Part shown: positions 26,152 through 34,059 of the stretch, piece by piece | How positions within the stretch are numbered: the first letter of the stretch is position 1 | Layout of the letters: every line of letters starts with the position of its first letter | Virus record (IMG/VR): IMGVR_UViG_2802429245_000003 | Source of the DNA: a virus | Taxonomy: Duplodnaviria > Heunggongvirae > Uroviricota > Caudoviricetes | Length of the DNA stretch: 34,179 nt | Strand: one strand, 5' to 3' | Translations under genes and position numbers: made by a program | The notes under the pieces: generated by a model | What the model was told of the DNA's origin: nothing | What the model saw: the letters and a program-made list of their open reading frames with translations, nothing else | Databases searched by the model: none

Positions 26152-27471
26152 ATGGATAAAAAATACACAGATAAATTAGAAGCTTGCGAGTACTTGCAAA
26201 ATGTTGACATTTGGCTTGATAATGGAAATGTTGACATGTTTAAAGTATCAGATATTTTAAACAATCTGTTGAAATTAGGTGATTTTGAGAAATTTGACCA
26301 TACACTTTCACTTTTAAAAGCTGAAAGCTTTGCAGAGAAAATAAAGTTTCGTCTTTCACGAGTTGAAAGTCAACGGGATAGTATATTACACGTTATCAGA
26401 GAAGGTGATAAGAATAAAAACCTTAGAAAAATAATACTAAAATCATATGACACAAAAAAAACAGAAATAAAATCACTATTCAATATATTCTCCAGAGAAA
26501 GCGGGCTATATTTTAGGAATAACCATGGAAATCACTACAGTTATTTTGAAGATGATTTCTTAGATTACAGCAATACTGTAAAAAACACACTTAGAGACAA
26601 AGGTTTTGCGAAAAAACTTTTACAGCACAATCAAGAAAAATTTAGAATTCTCGATGATGCGATAGTTCATACTTTCAATCATAATTTCTATGCCATTTCA
26701 GATAAAAATGGTTATTACGACTCAACAAATGCAGCCCGTCTGGCAAAACTTAGCCATGTTAATTATATTAATAACGACAATGAAATAAGATATATTGATA
26801 AGGCTATTTTTTTGCCCATAGACCATGCATGCAATAACTATTATCATGCTCTTAGTGAATGTTTCGGAGGATTGAAATTTATAACAGAATTACCTGATGA
26901 CATTCCTATAGTCTTTACGGAAGACAGATTTAATGTATTGGATTTTATTGCATCGCGCCTATGTATAGACCGCAAACGTTTTATTTCTATACAAACACTT
27001 GCTAATACTCGAATTAAAAAGGCACTACAATTATATCCATATAGTTTTAACTGGAGTGAAGATATTTTTCATTTTTTTAAAAAAATATCATACCCACAAA
27101 CAACAGACTCTAAAATATATATTTCAAGGAGAAAGTCAAGCCGTGGCCCATTAAATGAATTTGAAGTTGAAAATGAGCTTAAAGAATTAGGTTTTGATAT
27201 ACTATACGCTGAAGACCTTGACTTTGCGCAACAGGTTTCAATTTTCTCAAATGCAAGCATCCTTATTGGCCCTCATGGCGCAGGCCTCACCAACATTCTT
27301 TTTATGCCTAAGAATAGCACCCTTATCGAAATATTTAACAGTGAATATATCCAACCTGATTTCTATCTAAGATCTCGCCATAATAACATGAAATATGCAT
27401 GTACCATTCAATTTAATAATACCTTCAATATCGAAGAGATAAAAGAAATCATAGAAAGGTGTCAAGAATAA
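26152..27471 (+). CDS. DUF563 / glycosyltransferase family 61-like protein (AT-rich moron)
   Basis: 439 aa; C-terminal signature …ISRRKSSRGPLNEFEVENELKELGF…ASILIGPHGAGLTNILFMP… typical of GT61/DUF563 enzymes; AGGA ribosome-binding site; AT content much higher than the surrounding phage backbone; no obvious signal peptide or TM helix. Confidence 0.65.
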   Translation: MDKKYTDKLEACEYLQNVDIWLDNGNVDMFKVSDILNNLLKLGDFEKFDHTLSLLKAESFAEKIKFRLSRVESQRDSILHVIREGDKNKNLRKIILKSYDTKKTEIKSLFNIFSRESGLYFRNNHGNHYSYFEDDFLDYSNTVKNTLRDKGFAKKLLQHNQEKFRILDDAIVHTFNHNFYAISDKNGYYDSTNAARLAKLSHVNYINNDNEIRYIDKAIFLPIDHACNNYYHALSECFGGLKFITELPDDIPIVFTEDRFNVLDFIASRLCIDRKRFISIQTLANTRIKKALQLYPYSFNWSEDIFHFFKKISYPQTTDSKIYISRRKSSRGPLNEFEVENELKELGFDILYAEDLDFAQQVSIFSNASILIGPHGAGLTNILFMPKNSTLIEIFNSEYIQPDFYLRSRHNNMKYACTIQFNNTFNIEEIKEIIERCQE

Positions 27472-28980: not shown

Positions 28981-29996
28981 AGCTCCACCCCGTAAATCCA
29001 GTCAGTGTTCGTCAGGTCGAGTTTTGGTTTTCCGGCTGTCACGCCTGCCTGTTGCTTGTTTCGGTTGATTTCGAGCTGGGTCCACTTGTCGCGGAGTTTG
29101 GCCGGACTTAGCACGTTACCGGACCAGAAGTTGTCCTGGCATGCCCAGCGGAACAGCACGCACATGTCGCGGTGGTTACGTCCGTCACGTTCACGCATCA
29201 GGCGGATATCGTTAGCCCACCCTGCAAAATTCGGTTTTCTGGCTGATGGCGCGATGGTCTTCACCATGTCAAACATCCACTCTGCGGCGGTCAGGTCTTC
29301 TGCTGTCCCCCACTTGCTGCCGCTCTGAATTGCAGCATCTGGTTTCACCACAGGAAGATCGTTTTCTGGTTGGTCAGAGGATTCGCCAGAATTCTCGGAC
29401 GAAAAAGATTTTATATTGTCTTTTGTTAGTTTGTCTTTTGTGTTTACCTTATTCGGGTAAACGCCTTTACCTGATTTGGGTAAACTTTTCTTACCTGATT
29501 CAGGTAAATTTACCTCTTTCAGGTAAACTTTATTTTTCTTACCTGATTCGGGTAATGTTGACCATTCACTGACCACATTATTAATACCGATATTCCGCCC
29601 GCTCTGAATCAAAATCCCACGCTTTACCAGAACACTTTTTGCAGCAGAACACTTGTGCGGCAATATCCCGGTCAATTCGGACAGTTGCTCGTTGCTCACC
29701 CAATCCAGTTTTTTATTAAAGCCATATGTTTTGCGCATGACAGCCAGGAAGACCAGAAGCTGGTGCTGTGTTAATCCGGCCAGCATCACAGCTTCCAGCA
29801 ACTCATTTGCAATGCGCGTATAACCATCATCGAGATCTGCCACGCGCGGCTCCTTTTGTGCCGCATCCGGCACTGGAAAATTGAATATCTCAGCAGTGTT
29901 TGCCATAATTCCTCCCGCAATGAGTGTGTTACGATTTGCACCTGAAAGTCGGTTCTGTTCCAGCAGACCGGCTTTCGCCATTTCTGAACCTGTCAT
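28977..29996 (-). CDS. O: replication initiator O, lambda-type C-terminus with divergent origin-binding N-terminus
   Basis: 339 aa; C-terminal two-thirds (…SSENSGESSDQPENDL.VVKPDAAIQSGSKWGTAEDLTAAEWMFDMVKTIAPSARKPNFAGWANDIRLMRERDGRNHRDMCVLFRWACQDNFWSGNVLSPAKLRDKWTQLEINRNKQQAGVTA.KPKLDLTNTDWIYGV.L) matches lambda O; the N-terminal domain differs and contains the iterons. Confidence 0.95.
   Translation of the reverse strand: MTGSEMAKAGLLEQNRLSGANRNTLIAGGIMANTAEIFNFPVPDAAQKEPRVADLDDGYTRIANELLEAVMLAGLTQHQLLVFLAVMRKTYGFNKKLDWVSNEQLSELTGILPHKCSAAKSVLVKRGILIQSGRNIGINNVVSEWSTLPESGKKNKVYLKEVNLPESGKKSLPKSGKGVYPNKVNTKDKLTKDNIKSFSSENSGESSDQPENDLPVVKPDAAIQSGSKWGTAEDLTAAEWMFDMVKTIAPSARKPNFAGWANDIRLMRERDGRNHRDMCVLFRWACQDNFWSGNVLSPAKLRDKWTQLEINRNKQQAGVTAGKPKLDLTNTDWIYGVEL
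29444..29555. repeat. replication origin iterons inside the O gene: five 17-bp TTACC-N7-GGTAA repeats next to an AT-rich tract
   Basis: TTACCTTATTCGGGTAA (29444), TTACCTGATTTGGGTAA (29467), TTACCTGATTCAGGTAA (29491), TTACCTCTTTCAGGTAA (29510), TTACCTGATTCGGGTAA (29539); AT-rich stretch at 29401-29443 in the direction of O translation, as at ori-lambda. Confidence 0.8.
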
Positions 29997-30538
29997 ATCG
30001 CCCCCAGCATGGTAGTAACCATCGCCATCAATGGACCAGCCAGATCTGGGTCCACACGAAACATCGACACAATACCTTCACTAATTTCCTTCAGTTTCTG
30101 GTGGCGTGGTGCGTTGAGAATGACAGCCTGTTTTGCCTCACTGAGTTCCTTTTCCATTTCAGCCAACCTAGCCATGAAGCTATCCTGCTCAACCAGGTAA
30201 CCGCGATATTCCAGCGGTAGTACCGCCAGAATTGCCGGGGTCAGTTCACGCACGTTATTTCGGTATTTTTCAGAATCGAATTTGTTATCGAGGAAGCGGA
30301 ACAGCTTCTGGCGTGCACGGCTGACATCATCAGGGAAATCGATGGTGCCGCCGCCCTGCTCCCGATACTCATTCACAATGAGTGCGGCAACAACATCCTG
30401 ATTATCTGCAGCCGACCAGGCGCGGACGGCATCACGGATTTTTTCGTGGCCTGGAGCTTGTTTTGTTTGAGAACGATTTATCACCGCAGTCGGGCTAAAT
30501 CCGCTAGTCTGTTGGTATGTAAGTGGTTGCATAGTCAT
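29993..30538 (-). CDS. YdaT-like protein occupying the cII position
   Basis: 181 aa between the cro-like gene and O; central region (…NEYREQGGG…LTPAILAVLPLEYRGYL…) resembles E. coli Rac YdaT as I recall it. Confidence 0.6.
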   Translation of the reverse strand: MTMQPLTYQQTSGFSPTAVINRSQTKQAPGHEKIRDAVRAWSAADNQDVVAALIVNEYREQGGGTIDFPDDVSRARQKLFRFLDNKFDSEKYRNNVRELTPAILAVLPLEYRGYLVEQDSFMARLAEMEKELSEAKQAVILNAPRHQKLKEISEGIVSMFRVDPDLAGPLMAMVTTMLGAI

Positions 30539-30562
30539 TGCCTTATCAGTTAACGCCGCAGT

Positions 30563-30790
30563 TTAGGCGGCAGAATTACTCGCGTTAAACAATGGTGCGA
30601 GGTCGGGACGAATATCTGCTGGTTTAATCTTTCCACCAGTGGCTGAGACAATTTTCATTACATAGCGGGCATCAATTCCGCCACCGTGTAGCCAACGCCA
30701 AACAGTGGGTTGGGCTACACCGCATAGATCTGCCAGTCGTTTTTGACTACCTGTAATACTGATTGCGAGTTGAATGGTTTGATTTGTCAT
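30563..30790 (-). CDS. cro: Cro-like HTH regulator
   Basis: 75 aa from ATG at 30790 with AGGA ribosome-binding site; HTH segment (SQKRLADLCGVAQPTVWRW); divergent from the CI-like gene across the operator region. Confidence 0.7.
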   Translation of the reverse strand: MTNQTIQLAISITGSQKRLADLCGVAQPTVWRWLHGGGIDARYVMKIVSATGGKIKPADIRPDLAPLFNASNSAA

Positions 30791-30900
30791 TATCAATTCC
30801 TATTGGTATTGCAATGAACAAATAATAGCAATGCGTATTAATCATAACAATAGCAAAACGTGTTTTGACCATCAATACGCAAGCGTATAAATTAAAACTT
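30791..30900. promoter_or_regulatory. immunity control region (OR-like) with divergent PR/PRM and repeated AATAGCAA(T) operator motifs
   Basis: AATAGCAAT at 30825-30832 and AATAGCAAA at 30849-30856; plus-strand TTGACC (30865-30870) then TATAAA (30886-30891) places a PRM-like promoter whose transcript would start only a few nt before the cI ATG (near-leaderless, as for lambda cI). Confidence 0.5.
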
Positions 30901-31593
30901 ATGAAAAAAGAAACTCTTGCTGATCGCTTAAACCTAGCGATGGAACAATCTGGAATGTCTCAAGGCGCTCTTGCAAAGGCGTCTGGCGTAGCTCAACCCA
31001 CAATCTGGAGACTGACAAGCGGCAACGCGCGCGGCTCAACAAAAATTGTTGAAATAGCTAATGCATTGGGTGTTCGAACAGAGTGGCTCTCATCAGGCAT
31101 AGGCCCGATGAGAAATGACGGTCAACAATTAGGGAAGCCTACTGCCAACCATCCCAAATACTTCAAGATTGACGTTCTTGATATAGAAGTGAGTGCCGGG
31201 CCGGGAGTCATCAACCGTGAGTTTGTAGAAGTTCTACGCTCGGTTGAGTACTCATTTGACGATGCTCGTCACATGTTCGATGGCAGGAAGGCAGAAAATA
31301 TCCGCATCATTAACGTACGCGGTGACAGCATGTCAGGAACGATCGAACCAGGTGATCTTCTGTTCGTTGATATCACTGTTAAATCTTTCGACGGTGATGG
31401 TATCTATGCGTTTCTGTATGACGACACCGCCCATGTAAAGCGCCTGCAAATGATGAAGGATAAGCTGCTGGTTATCTCTGATAACAAGAGCTACTCACCG
31501 TGGGACCCGATCGAGAAAGACGAGATGAACCGCGTGTTCATCTTCGGGAAAGTCATCGGGAGCATGCCGCAGACATATAGAAAGCATGGGTAG
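30901..31593 (+). CDS. cI: CI-like prophage repressor (HTH plus LexA/S24 autopeptidase domain)
   Basis: 230 aa from ATG at 30901; N-terminal HTH (MSQGALAKASGVAQPTIWRL) and C-terminal S24-like domain (…RGDSMSGTIEPGDLLFVD…HVKRLQ…) with the Ser/Lys dyad context. Confidence 0.85.
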   Translation: MKKETLADRLNLAMEQSGMSQGALAKASGVAQPTIWRLTSGNARGSTKIVEIANALGVRTEWLSSGIGPMRNDGQQLGKPTANHPKYFKIDVLDIEVSAGPGVINREFVEVLRSVEYSFDDARHMFDGRKAENIRIINVRGDSMSGTIEPGDLLFVDITVKSFDGDGIYAFLYDDTAHVKRLQMMKDKLLVISDNKSYSPWDPIEKDEMNRVFIFGKVIGSMPQTYRKHG

Positions 31594-31722
31594 AAATCAG
31601 AACAAAATTATGCACTTCGCTTTTCAGCTTACTGTAGTAAGGCAATAAATTAGGCTTGACGTTAGCTATCAGGTGCACAACAATAATTGTTGAATAATAG
31701 GTTTTTTTAACTAGGTGATAAC

Positions 31723-32862
31723 ATGGCAGCGGTTGAATTTCAATTGTCTAGGAAGATGATTGATTGGATAGCAAATTCTCAAGGAGTTTCTATCGAAACT
31801 CTTGCTGACCAAGTCATGCCCAAAAAGATTAATAAATTTCTTAACGGAGTGGTAAGTAAATCCGCAGCAGAAAAACTGGCAAAAATTGGAGGAATCCCTT
31901 TCGGTTTTTTATTTCTTGAAACGCCACCAACTCCAGCCAAACCCAAGATCCCTGACTTAAGGCAAGCTATAAATAGCCGTGAGTTAGGAAAAGATTTTTT
32001 TGATGTTTACTATGATATAGAATATAAACTTGAGTGGTACAAAGACTATTTAAGAGAAAATGGTAATGATGATCCACTCGATTTTATTGGTAAATTTAAA
32101 TTTAATAGAAAATTAAATTATAAGGTTGTTGCTACAGACATAGCAAACACAATACATTTTGATATACAAAAAGAGATAAAAAATGTCACTTTTGAGAGCT
32201 ATTTTTCTAAAGTGGCAAAACTAATAGAAGACACTGGCGTATTAGTTTTCAAGAATGGTGTTGTGGGTAATAATAATAAAAGAAAACTTGACACGCGAGA
32301 GTTTCGTGGTTTCTGTATATCTGATAGCGTTGCTCCGATCATTTTTGTAAATAGCTCGGACGCGTTATCTGCGCAGGTATTTACATTATTTCATGAGGTG
32401 GCTCATCTTTGGCTTGGAGTCGATGGAGTCTCTGGGTGGGACACAGAAAAAAACATAGAATCTTTTTGTAATAAAGTTGCTGCTGAAATCTTAATGCCTG
32501 ATAATCTCTTCAAATCTTTCTGGCTTAATGCATCCAGCGATAATAATTATTATCGAGTAAAAGAGGTTTCTAAGTTATTTAAGGTTAGTGATTTCGCTTG
32601 TGCAATCAAAGCGTTACAATTAGATTTGATAGAAAGAAACACTTTGGAGATAATTAAAGATCAAGCTTACAATAAGCCCAAAAAAGAATCTAATGGTGGT
32701 TCTTTCTTTAACACATTACCTGTTCGTAACAGTCCAAAACTTACGAATATAATAATTTCCAAAGCAATGTCTCAACAATTACCATTAAGGGAAGCAGGCG
32801 TACTGCTAAATGTAAAAGCAGATACAGTTGTTGAATTTTATAAAAAACGAGAATCTCTATGA
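31723..32862 (+). CDS. HTH plus ImmA/IrrE-family (DUF955, M78-like) zinc metallopeptidase, first gene of a two-gene module in the rexAB slot
   Basis: 379 aa; N-terminal HTH-like region; HExxH motif in FTLFHEVAHLWLG with a downstream Glu; AGGTG ribosome-binding site; markedly AT-rich codon usage compared with cI. Confidence 0.7.
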   Translation: MAAVEFQLSRKMIDWIANSQGVSIETLADQVMPKKINKFLNGVVSKSAAEKLAKIGGIPFGFLFLETPPTPAKPKIPDLRQAINSRELGKDFFDVYYDIEYKLEWYKDYLRENGNDDPLDFIGKFKFNRKLNYKVVATDIANTIHFDIQKEIKNVTFESYFSKVAKLIEDTGVLVFKNGVVGNNNKRKLDTREFRGFCISDSVAPIIFVNSSDALSAQVFTLFHEVAHLWLGVDGVSGWDTEKNIESFCNKVAAEILMPDNLFKSFWLNASSDNNYYRVKEVSKLFKVSDFACAIKALQLDLIERNTLEIIKDQAYNKPKKESNGGSFFNTLPVRNSPKLTNIIISKAMSQQLPLREAGVLLNVKADTVVEFYKKRESL

Positions 32863-33371
32863 TTCATAATGGAAAATTCTTAATTGATAGTAATGTCTTC
32901 ATAGAGGCAAAAAACTTTGCATATAACTTCAATTATTGCAAAATATTTTGGGATTTTCTTCTCGCTTTACACATGAATGGTCTGATTTATAGCATTAATG
33001 CTGTAAAAAAAGAACTATGTGCAAAAGATGATCCATTGTGTAAATGGATTAAAGAAGAGTTACCATCATCATTCTTCGAAGATGAGCATAGTTCAATAGA
33101 AAATTATGCAAAGTTAATAAATTGGTCAACTAAATTAGATGTTACCGAAAAGGCAAAGTTTGACTTTGCAAGCCATGAAAAAGCAGATGCTTTTTTAATA
33201 GCCCATGCGATGACACATGGATATACTATTATTACCCATGAGAAACCATCCGGTGGCAAACCTAAAAAAAGAATAATGATCCCGGATGCTGCTGCTTCTC
33301 ACGGCGTTAAGACATTAACACTATATGAATTTCTTCCAAGATACGCTAGTCATAATTTTTCTTTGAAATAA
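32859..33371 (+). CDS. DUF4411-like (predicted PIN-like) protein, second gene of the module; candidate toxin/effector
   Basis: 170 aa; start overlaps the upstream stop (ATGA); N-terminal FLIDSNVFIEA resembles the first acidic strand of PIN-like domains; followed directly by a strong terminator. Confidence 0.6.
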   Translation: MIHNGKFLIDSNVFIEAKNFAYNFNYCKIFWDFLLALHMNGLIYSINAVKKELCAKDDPLCKWIKEELPSSFFEDEHSSIENYAKLINWSTKLDVTEKAKFDFASHEKADAFLIAHAMTHGYTIITHEKPSGGKPKKRIMIPDAAASHGVKTLTLYEFLPRYASHNFSLK

Positions 33372-33376
33372 AACGT

Positions 33377-33404
33377 CCCGGCCACCGTGCCGGGTTTTCT
33401 TTTG
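33377..33404 (+). terminator. rho-independent terminator closing the two-gene module
   Basis: CCCGGC-CACCGT-GCCGGG followed by TTTTCTTTTG, 6 nt after the stop codon. Confidence 0.65.
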
Positions 33405-33532
33405 TCCCCTCCCCTCATCACACAAACCGTTCGAAAAACCACCACAACCTCCCTTCAGTTATCGCTATGCGATGCAAGTCACAAAATTAATTCTTTTTGC
33501 TATCAAACAGTTAATATCAAAACACATCAATC

Positions 33533-33575
33533 AATAGCAATAAGTATTGATACCACCAATAGCAATAGCTATTAT
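33533..33575 (+). promoter_or_regulatory. PL-like early-left promoter with OL operator repeats
   Basis: -35 TTGATA (33547-33552), 17-nt spacer, -10 TATTAT (33570-33575); AATAGCAAT at 33533-33541 and 33558-33566, the same motif as in the OR region. Confidence 0.55.
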
Positions 33576-33768
33576 TACCATGTCGCAACAACACAACGAT
33601 ACGGCAACCACCTGATTCACCGTTGCGATGACCGCTTAGATCCGCAGCTTGAATTTCAGCAGGCTCCGGGGAGTGCGAGGGGTGAAGCGGACGCGTGAAC
33701 GTCGGTGTGACCAGCTGAAATCAACTCAACACTTCATACCTCAGTCGCTTCAACGAGGCGGCTTAGTT

Positions 33769-34059
33769 ATGACAACCGGCGGCCATCCACCGCCTGAATA
33801 CGCGCAGAAGTCTCTATATGTTCAGCAGCCCAGCTTACGGGCAGGAGTTTTTATGGTTCATCAACATTACGGAACGCAGACCGTTAATCGCGGTGCGGTC
33901 ATGCCAGGAATGCTGGTCAAACACAAAGATGGTACCTGGACTGCATCAGCTAATTTACGCGGACGGCTTTATCTGCATCGCGGCATCGAGCGCACTTATA
34001 CCCGTGACTTGCTCGTGGAAATTTTTCTCGACGGACGCGGCAACGGCCTGAATCACTAA
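33769..34059 (+). CDS. hypothetical early-left protein (first ORF downstream of PL)
   Basis: 97-aa ORF from ATG at 33769 with GAGG ribosome-binding site about 10 nt upstream; no family recognised. An in-frame upstream extension without an ATG encodes an Arg-rich stretch. Confidence 0.4.

Follow-up and report, generated by a model that had tools for sequence, protein, structure and literature searches.

The window analyzed here, i.e. the whole stretch of 34,179 nucleotides catalogued as IMG/VR virus record IMGVR_UViG_2802429245_000003 (Uroviricota; Caudoviricetes), represents a lambdoid prophage of Escherichia coli with an integration site adjoining icd. Between its cI-like repressor gene and its oL/pL-like operator-promoter region lies a pair of co-oriented genes, namely open reading frame 1 (ORF1), which codes for a zinc peptidase of the M78/IrrE family, and ORF2, which codes for a PIN-like protein of the DUF4411 family. 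We consider it probable that the two genes make up a toxin-antitoxin cassette of type II, of the same kind as VapBC52, with ORF1 as the antitoxin and ORF2 as the toxin, and that this cassette is an interchangeable cargo of the prophage. A preliminary description of this DNA had recognized two overlapping genes with an ATGA junction downstream of a CI-like repressor and had offered them as a candidate toxin-antitoxin or abortive-infection system; the coordinates of the genes stand, with the overlap at 32859-32862, and the functional proposal is strengthened by homology to the experimentally validated VapBC52 pair of Mycobacterium tuberculosis. It had also left room for the pair being an already well-characterized named system, and to a large extent this proved to be the case: the kind of system is not new, having been predicted in 2017, and a homologous pair was solved and characterized in 2026, albeit the present cassette is only a distant relative of the latter.

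The connection with VapBC52 came from a sequence and profile search of PDB chains. The profile of the ORF1 family recovered chain 9vzy_A, VapB52, with E=1.7e-23 across positions 10-372, and that of the ORF2 family recovered chain 9vzy_D, VapC52, which is itself annotated as a 'DUF4411 family protein', with E=1.3e-13. The entry 9VZY, together with 9VZZ, corresponds to the M. tuberculosis VapB52-VapC52 complex (Rv2515c/Rv2514c; Singh et al., Nucleic Acids Research, June 2026, PMC13273310). According to that study VapC52 is a toxic PIN-fold protein that cuts tRNAs in the anticodon or variable loops, and is neutralized by the antitoxin in a VapB52:VapC52 complex of 1:2 stoichiometry, in which the toxin dimer is bound by the N-terminal domain of VapB52 and the active site is covered by the C-terminal one. 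Upon addition of single-stranded DNA (ssDNA), which likewise activates CapP and PprI, the central IrrE-type peptidase of VapB52 removes its own N-terminal domain, and no such cleavage is seen with an HExxH mutant. A conserved 'FR' motif was proposed as the cut site and C229, the 'cysteine switch', as a lock that acts as a fourth zinc ligand and occludes the peptidase active site (PMC13273310).

The homology between the two systems is significant over the full length of the proteins and extends to their organization. Both present the antitoxin gene followed by the toxin gene, a DUF4411 PIN toxin with the same acidic residues, and an antitoxin of about 380-390 aa with three domains, comprising five N-terminal helices, a middle part combining the HExxH peptidase with helices, and four C-terminal helices. 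In both, the third zinc ligand is a Glu within an E..CN motif, the zinc ligands of ORF1 aligning with H216, H220 and E245 of VapB52, and a D-x-R motif is conserved at the junction between the N-terminal and peptidase domains. They differ in the details of this motif, which is PDLR in the E. coli pair and DFR in VapB52, and in the E. coli protein having Ser237 in place of the Cys229 of the cysteine switch, a feature that it hence lacks. The settings also differ, with the E. coli pair being a mobile cassette of a lambdoid prophage and the M. tuberculosis pair a chromosomal locus of a slow-growing actinobacterium.

At the level of individual domains, ORF1 shows a match to Pfam Peptidase_M78 (E=1.2e-13, aa 169-291) and a full-length match to the phage protein family PHROG 2439 (3e-76), which bears out the zinc peptidase with an HExxH motif (FHEVAHLWLG) that had been read from the first gene. 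An alignment of 59 ORF1 homologs shows that H224, E225, H228, E246, C249 and N250 are invariant, and a census of motifs in 78 homologs recovered HExxH in every one of them and E..CN in 74. The position corresponding to the cysteine switch, nine residues after the second His of the HExxH motif, is Ser in 70 of these 78 and Cys in none, so that, judged from the alignment, this switch seems peculiar to VapB52 and CapP and not a defining feature of the family. At the putative counterpart of the 'FR' self-cleavage motif, D78 and R80 of PDLR are invariant in the alignment, and 72 of the 78 homologs carry PD[F/L/M]R, with F (51) more frequent than L (18) or M (3) at the third position. The AlphaFold2 model of ORF1 (mean predicted local distance difference test score, pLDDT, 89.1) displays a five-helix N-terminal domain (aa 1-65), a flexible linker of lower confidence that carries PDLR (aa 66-90, the reduced scores lying at aa 71-90), an alpha/beta peptidase core followed by helices, and a four-helix C-terminal domain (approximately aa 328-379). 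The best solved matches of this model in Foldseek searches are CapP (7t5t), IrrE (3dti) and PprI (8sln).

The helix-turn-helix (HTH) character that had been ascribed to the N-terminus of ORF1 stands in part. Searches with the Pfam HTH models returned no match in ORF1 or in 58 of its homologs, and the label can therefore be applied in a structural sense only, i.e. by virtue of the five helices predicted for this region, its weak match to C.BclI in Foldseek, and the solved N-terminal domain of VapB52. The only match to an NCBIfam model fell below threshold (the spr1629 antitoxin model, scoring 24.6 bits against a cut-off of 335) and was not used.

ORF2 in turn is readily assigned to Pfam DUF4411 (E=1.1e-37) and PHROG 11126 (2e-67), in agreement with the preliminary description, as is the PIN-like fold proposed there: the AlphaFold2 model (mean pLDDT 86.5) finds its best solved matches in the VapC toxins 3h87, 6a7v and 3tnd, with template modeling (TM) scores of up to 0.67. 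D10, N12, E52, D110 and E128 are invariant in 46 homologs, and D10, E52, D110 and E128 correspond to the acidic quartet of PIN nucleases, from which we predict that they are the catalytic residues. DUF4411 comprises 5,338 representatives at 50% identity (E<=1e-3).

Contextual information from genomes ties the two families tightly together. We collected 474 DUF4411 relatives, using one genome per species, and kept the best 80 loci, and in 79 of these a full-length ORF1 homolog lies directly upstream, co-oriented with the DUF4411 gene and separated from it by at most 16 nucleotides; the lone unpaired locus is cut by the end of its contig. The hosts of the paired loci span Enterobacterales, Chloroflexota, Spirochaetes, Acidobacteriota, Actinomycetes, Planctomycetota, Bacteroidota and Cyanobacteria. 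Of 75 DUF4411 loci on viral contigs from IMG/VR, 72 show the pairing, the exceptions being two that are cut by contig ends and one nonsense allele. The reverse census, starting from ORF1 homologs, found DUF4411 directly 3' in 78 of 80 loci; the two sets of viral-contig loci overlap and are hence not independent. Thus, the pairing of ORF1 with DUF4411 is strict and reciprocal across phyla, with the antitoxin gene always first. Comparison with a homologous pair from Klebsiella yielded ratios of nonsynonymous to synonymous substitution rates (dN/dS) of 0.20 and 0.06 for the two genes, indicating that both are under purifying selection; a homolog with 78% identity could not be used for this purpose on account of saturated dS.

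The limits of the cassette could be defined by pairwise BLAST comparisons with E. coli prophages that carry other cargo at the same place. These set the left breakpoint at the stop codon of cI (31593/4) and the right breakpoint at 33376/7 (alleles L084 and L085) or at 33616 (L083 and L086). The GC content within these limits is 0.334 (0.25-0.26 at third codon positions), as against 0.472 (0.51 at third codon positions) in the cI-like gene and 0.495 in the right flank, in keeping with the preliminary description of the pair as an AT-rich, horizontally acquired moron. The strong terminator that had been seen as closing the two genes does exist, with a predicted folding energy of -12.2 kcal/mol for its hairpin (z = -2.1), but it belongs to the backbone of the prophage and not to the cassette, since the right breakpoint at 33376/7 precedes it; in L084 and L085 it forms part of the right flank that is conserved, and other cargo alleles have it in common. 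The coordinates of these and other features are collected in Table 1.

Table 1. Positions in the window of the cassette, its genes and predicted functional sites, and the flanking elements of the prophage
Feature	Position	Strand	Details
Mobile cargo cassette	31594..33375	+	intergenic promoter region, ORF1 and ORF2; 1.78 kb
ORF1	31723..32862	+	379 aa; M78/IrrE peptidase, antitoxin candidate
ORF2	32859..33371	+	170 aa; DUF4411 PIN-like nuclease, toxin candidate
PDLR motif	31951..31962	+	aa 77-80; putative counterpart of the VapB52 'FR' self-cleavage motif; aligns with DFR of VapB52
HEVAH zinc-binding motif	32392..32406	+	H224, E225, H228; inside FHEVAHLWLG
Ser237	32431-32433	+	at the 'cysteine switch' position, from alignment to VapB52
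E246	32458-32460	+	third zinc ligand; invariant column
Candidate sigma-70 promoter of the cassette	31656..31684	+	TTGACG, 17-nt spacer, AACAAT; from consensus scan
Perfect palindrome	31678..31692	.	CAACAAT-a-ATTGTTG; overlaps the -10 element; possible autoregulatory operator
Rho-independent terminator	33377..33404	+	hairpin 33377-33394 with 6 G-C pairs, then T-run
cI-like repressor	30901..31593	+	Pfam Peptidase_S24 1.5e-18, HTH_3 1.5e-6
oL/pL-like region	33532..33575	+	CAATAGCAAT repeats at 33532-33572; promoter-like TTGATA-17-TATTAT at 33547-33575

The cassette probably has a promoter of its own, as predicted from the sequence, with possible additional read-through from the promoter of the repressor. 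An element of the form TTGAC[GC]-17-AA[CT]A[AC]T is found at a similar distance 5' of the ORF1 homologs of Klebsiella, a Trabulsiella-like strain, Moellerella and Xenorhabdus in unrelated contexts, and this promoter-like element is kept together with a GGTG ribosome-binding site 5' of ORF1 in five Enterobacterales; its conservation across differing genomic contexts suggests that the cassette brings its own promoter along. A terminator scan detected no plus-strand terminator between cI and the cassette, and so transcription originating from the repressor promoter might also read through into it. The Shine-Dalgarno sequence of ORF1, AGGTGA, is located at 31713-31718. The palindrome overlapping the -10 element is a weak candidate for an autoregulatory operator: it has no clear counterpart in the other species compared and a partial one in locus L092.

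The pair occupies the slot between cI and oL/pL that is equivalent to the position of rexAB in lambda. A query extending from cI to kil showed that the flanks of this slot are matched in 3,189 of 5,426 complete E. coli genomes, the cassette itself being present in only 33 of the 5,426, in copies that are nearly clonal (at least 99% identity). Sister prophages with flanks about 97% identical to those of the window carry other cargo at this place, namely a SIR2 protein, a HipA-family kinase with a DUF3037 protein, a 353-aa hypothetical protein with an ASCH protein, a Ser/Thr kinase, a BamE-like protein or small ORFs of no assigned function, or have an empty slot. One of these sister prophages encodes a cI protein identical to that of the window (WP_000712396.1) next to a different cargo. 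The slot of this prophage group is thus a hotspot at which cargo is swapped, and the interval between cI and N has been described in the literature as a mosaic hotspot housing rexAB and bstA. The earlier proposal that the repressor-adjacent rexAB slot is variable and rich in defense genes is accordingly upheld by both the sister prophages and the literature.

The cassette is also encountered outside this prophage group. The homologous pair from Klebsiella (L087-L091, 5243-7649; 53% identity) occupies the corresponding slot next to the repressor in a Rac-like prophage, with a gene order comprising a 155-aa HTH_3 repressor, a 32-aa YoaK-like ORF, the pair, and then DUF1482, YdaE, recE and recT, from which it follows that the same kind of slot captured the cassette independently. 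A copy with 78% identity adjoins DinI, invertase and tail-fiber genes in another type of prophage, and homologs were also recovered from 26 plasmids, of which many are conjugative. A near-identity search of GenBank phages returned nothing and a protein-level search of phages recovered one distant metagenomic phage only; hence, the cassette is undocumented in any isolated phage.

Taken by analogy with VapBC52, these observations allow a mechanism to be proposed. ORF2 would be a PIN-fold ribonuclease toxin, most likely one that cuts tRNA loops as VapC52 does. ORF1 would be its dedicated antitoxin, with the N-terminal helices holding the toxin dimer, the C-terminal helices covering the PIN active site, and the central IrrE/ImmA-type zinc peptidase acting as a built-in sensor. 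The trigger may be ssDNA, as in the homologs VapB52 and CapP, arising from phage replication, recombination or DNA damage, and the triggered peptidase would then cut ORF1 itself at PD[L/F]R within the N-terminal linker. Release of the toxin would halt translation, so that the infected cell arrests or dies in the manner of abortive infection. We regard it as very likely that ORF1 and ORF2 function as a toxin-antitoxin pair with homology to VapBC52, and as evenly balanced whether the native cassette would protect E. coli against some phages.

Several observations weigh against this interpretation. The sequences from the window taken singly match VapB52 and VapC52 with E-values of only 8e-7 and 6e-6 respectively, over their cores alone, and the identity is low. 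ORF2 gives no match at E<=0.1 to any PADLOC model, including RmrT. In the VapBC52 study, VapC52 overexpressed alone protected M. smegmatis from phage D29, and there was no protection when the antitoxin was co-expressed (PMC13273310). Given that residue 237 of ORF1 is Ser, and that the corresponding residue in the family is mostly Ser and never Cys, its mechanism of activation may differ from the one modeled on VapB52 and CapP. A trigger in the form of ssDNA also raises a problem of self-immunity, since the prophage makes ssDNA of its own through Red recombination and through replication. Lastly, in E. coli ATCC 43886 (NZ_CP024256.1, L082, 2630-5055) an IS1 element is inserted at about codon 182 of ORF1, and the same arrangement recurs in NZ_CP035870.1, the two strains named being ATCC 43886 and E2528-C1. 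The split gene is annotated as fragments covering aa 1-182 and 180-379, and the toxin gene is intact save for M39I, a combination that one would not expect were an intact antitoxin indispensable; these alleles could be accounted for by a polar effect of the IS1 element, or by two halves of ORF1 that still neutralize the toxin. We also entertain, as a rather doubtful possibility, a genuine abortive-infection system of the prophage in which the antitoxin is a sensor of infection that dispenses with the cysteine switch; its activation, and possibly its trigger, would differ from the published model, and it would need a device that spares its own phage, comparable to aba in the case of BstA.

Previously described systems include modules recognized computationally by Matelska et al. 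in 2017 (PMC5499597), who reported DUF4411.1 genes downstream of genes for fused HTH-DUF955 proteins (ImmA, COG2856) and proposed a toxin-antitoxin function for them. These modules (PMC5499597; see also Makarova et al. 2009, PMC2701414) have exactly the architecture of ORF1-ORF2, but the predictions were purely computational, with prophage slots, cassette boundaries and residue-level features outside their scope. ImmA-type peptidase antitoxins, termed RmrA, are also part of the phage-defensive RosmerTA systems, for which links to PIN domains have been noted (Millman et al. 2022; Ernits et al. 2023, PMC10440598). The resemblance of RosmerTA to the present pair lies in the ImmA-type zinc-peptidase antitoxin, often with an N-terminal HTH, and in its comprising phage-defensive pairs of which some are phage-borne; it differs in that RmrA has many partners and a variable gene order, the toxin gene leading in 58% of cases. 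In PADLOC searches the best match of ORF1 is capP (1e-14), with 13 RmrA models following more weakly at 6e-8 to 8e-4, mainly over the peptidase core. Given this, the strict pairing of ORF1 with DUF4411 as opposed to the promiscuity of RmrA, and the lack of a PADLOC match for ORF2, we rejected an identification of the pair as RosmerTA. The pair of a peptidase-linked toxin-antitoxin type reported by Rousset in 2021 is likewise a different system, in that its toxin is encoded upstream and has no recognizable domain, and the pair depends on ClpP.

Canonical VapBC systems share the PIN fold of ORF2, but their antitoxins are small proteins of about 70-90 aa of the RHH, AbrB or Phd type, whereas ORF1 is a peptidase of 379 aa with no match to such families. 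CapP/CapH, which regulates CBASS (antiphage signaling systems based on cyclic oligonucleotides), and IrrE/DdrO of Deinococcus use peptidases of the same family, which supply the best structural matches of ORF1; in these the protease cuts a separate repressor and thereby turns transcription on, whereas in the VapBC52 type protease and substrate are one polypeptide and a bound toxin is released. RexAB of lambda and BstA of Salmonella BTP1 resemble the pair in occupying the same position, between cI and pL/N of a lambdoid prophage, but have no sequence or fold relationship with it, RexB being a membrane channel and BstA a sensor of replicating DNA rather than a protease-held PIN nuclease. No Rex model was present among the matches to PADLOC, Pfam and NCBIfam.

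The toxin-antitoxin evidence, namely the invariant residues and the homology to VapBC52, would serve equally well for a selfish addiction module, i.e. a working pair that penalizes loss of the prophage or the cassette and confers no protection against phages. The failure of the intact VapBC52 pair to protect against D29 would fit such a module, as would the spread of homologs on plasmids, where stabilization is the classical role of toxin-antitoxin systems, and the rarity and near-clonality of the cassette in E. coli. Nevertheless, we think it unlikely that addiction is the whole function: a peptidase of the sensor type with an HExxH motif conserved in all 78 homologs would be superfluous in a plain addiction module, its relatives with the same peptidase, CapP and the RmrA of RosmerTA, act in phage defense, and the corresponding slots of sister prophages hold recognized defense types such as SIR2 and HipA-type kinases. 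A regulatory role in the prophage switch, with ORF1 cleaving a separate repressor such as the cI-like protein in the fashion of ImmR/ImmA, IrrE/DdrO or CapP/CapH and ORF2 being an accessory nuclease, is brought to mind by the structural matches of the M78 domain to CapP, IrrE and PprI, by the location of ORF1 directly 3' of an HTH repressor gene, and by the known action of ImmA-type proteases as anti-repressors. Yet, the cI-like protein has an S24 autocleavage domain of its own, the pair is also found away from any repressor, e.g. beside the DinI and tail-fiber genes, ORF1 is tied to DUF4411 whichever of the two families the census starts from, and the substrate of the VapB52 protease is VapB52 itself. 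Moreover, the identical cI is found next to a different cargo, which means that the switch has no need of ORF1, and we judge this role to be highly improbable.

Decay has visibly affected some copies of the cassette. Besides the IS1 insertions in ORF1 of two strains, one E. coli prophage copy (IMGVR_UViG_2908572912_000001, L099) combines an intact ORF1 with a toxin gene that has a stop at the codon of the catalytic Glu52 (AVKK*LCAK), and a disrupted toxin beside an intact antitoxin fits the decay expected of a harmful toxin. These natural disruptions might be taken to mean that the cassette is an inactive or decaying remnant, a non-functional cargo, in the strain represented by the window as well. 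Against this, both ORFs of the window are full length with all catalytic and invariant residues in place, their proteins are identical to copies in other genomes, and the promoter, the Shine-Dalgarno sequence and the ATGA coupling are preserved; there is thus very little likelihood that the pair is a remnant here, and a VapBC52-type toxin-antitoxin cassette continues to be the reading that we favor.

The surrounding region has the layout of a lambdoid immunity and early region. The true start of cI is probably the ATG at 30901, as in the RefSeq annotation, the mechanically called ORF beginning at a TTG at 30865. The operator-like decamer CAATAGCAAT of the oL/pL-like region also clusters between cro and cI at 30796-30857, corresponding to oR. 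The minus strand bears a cro-like gene of the YdaS family, a gene of the YdaT family and O/P-like replication genes. The YdaS-family (76 aa) and YdaT-family (180 aa) genes at 29993-30796 fill the cro and cII positions, and Pfam labels these families as 'toxins' despite their location at the places proper to regulators of the lytic switch. Downstream of the oL/pL-like region are kil, gam, bet and exo; between the pL-like promoter and kil (33405-33852) no gene for an N-like antiterminator is annotated or evident. Scanning the entire window for Rfam families and tRNA genes returned no matches.

A second AT-rich island (GC 0.31) is located on the plus strand at 26152-27471 and encodes a 439-aa protein of the Glycosyltransferase-61 family with no PADLOC match. 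It is probably another moron, perhaps with a role in modifying surface glycans, and in a related prophage (L001) its counterpart instead comprises genes for an alpha/beta hydrolase, a recombinase and emrE.

The slot between cI and pL should be of use in finding further systems, as several of its cargoes are themselves uncharacterized candidates for defense. For the family as a whole, the prevalence of Ser and the absence of Cys at the switch position among the 78 homologs imply that the published model of auto-inhibition may not apply to most of its members. The cassette also provides a well-delimited and easily cloned E. coli example of a type of toxin-antitoxin system whose study has to date been confined to M. 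tuberculosis. With the phage collections and the genetics available for E. coli, it could settle whether modules of a protease antitoxin and a DUF4411 protein act in defense, what triggers them, and how general the cysteine switch is.

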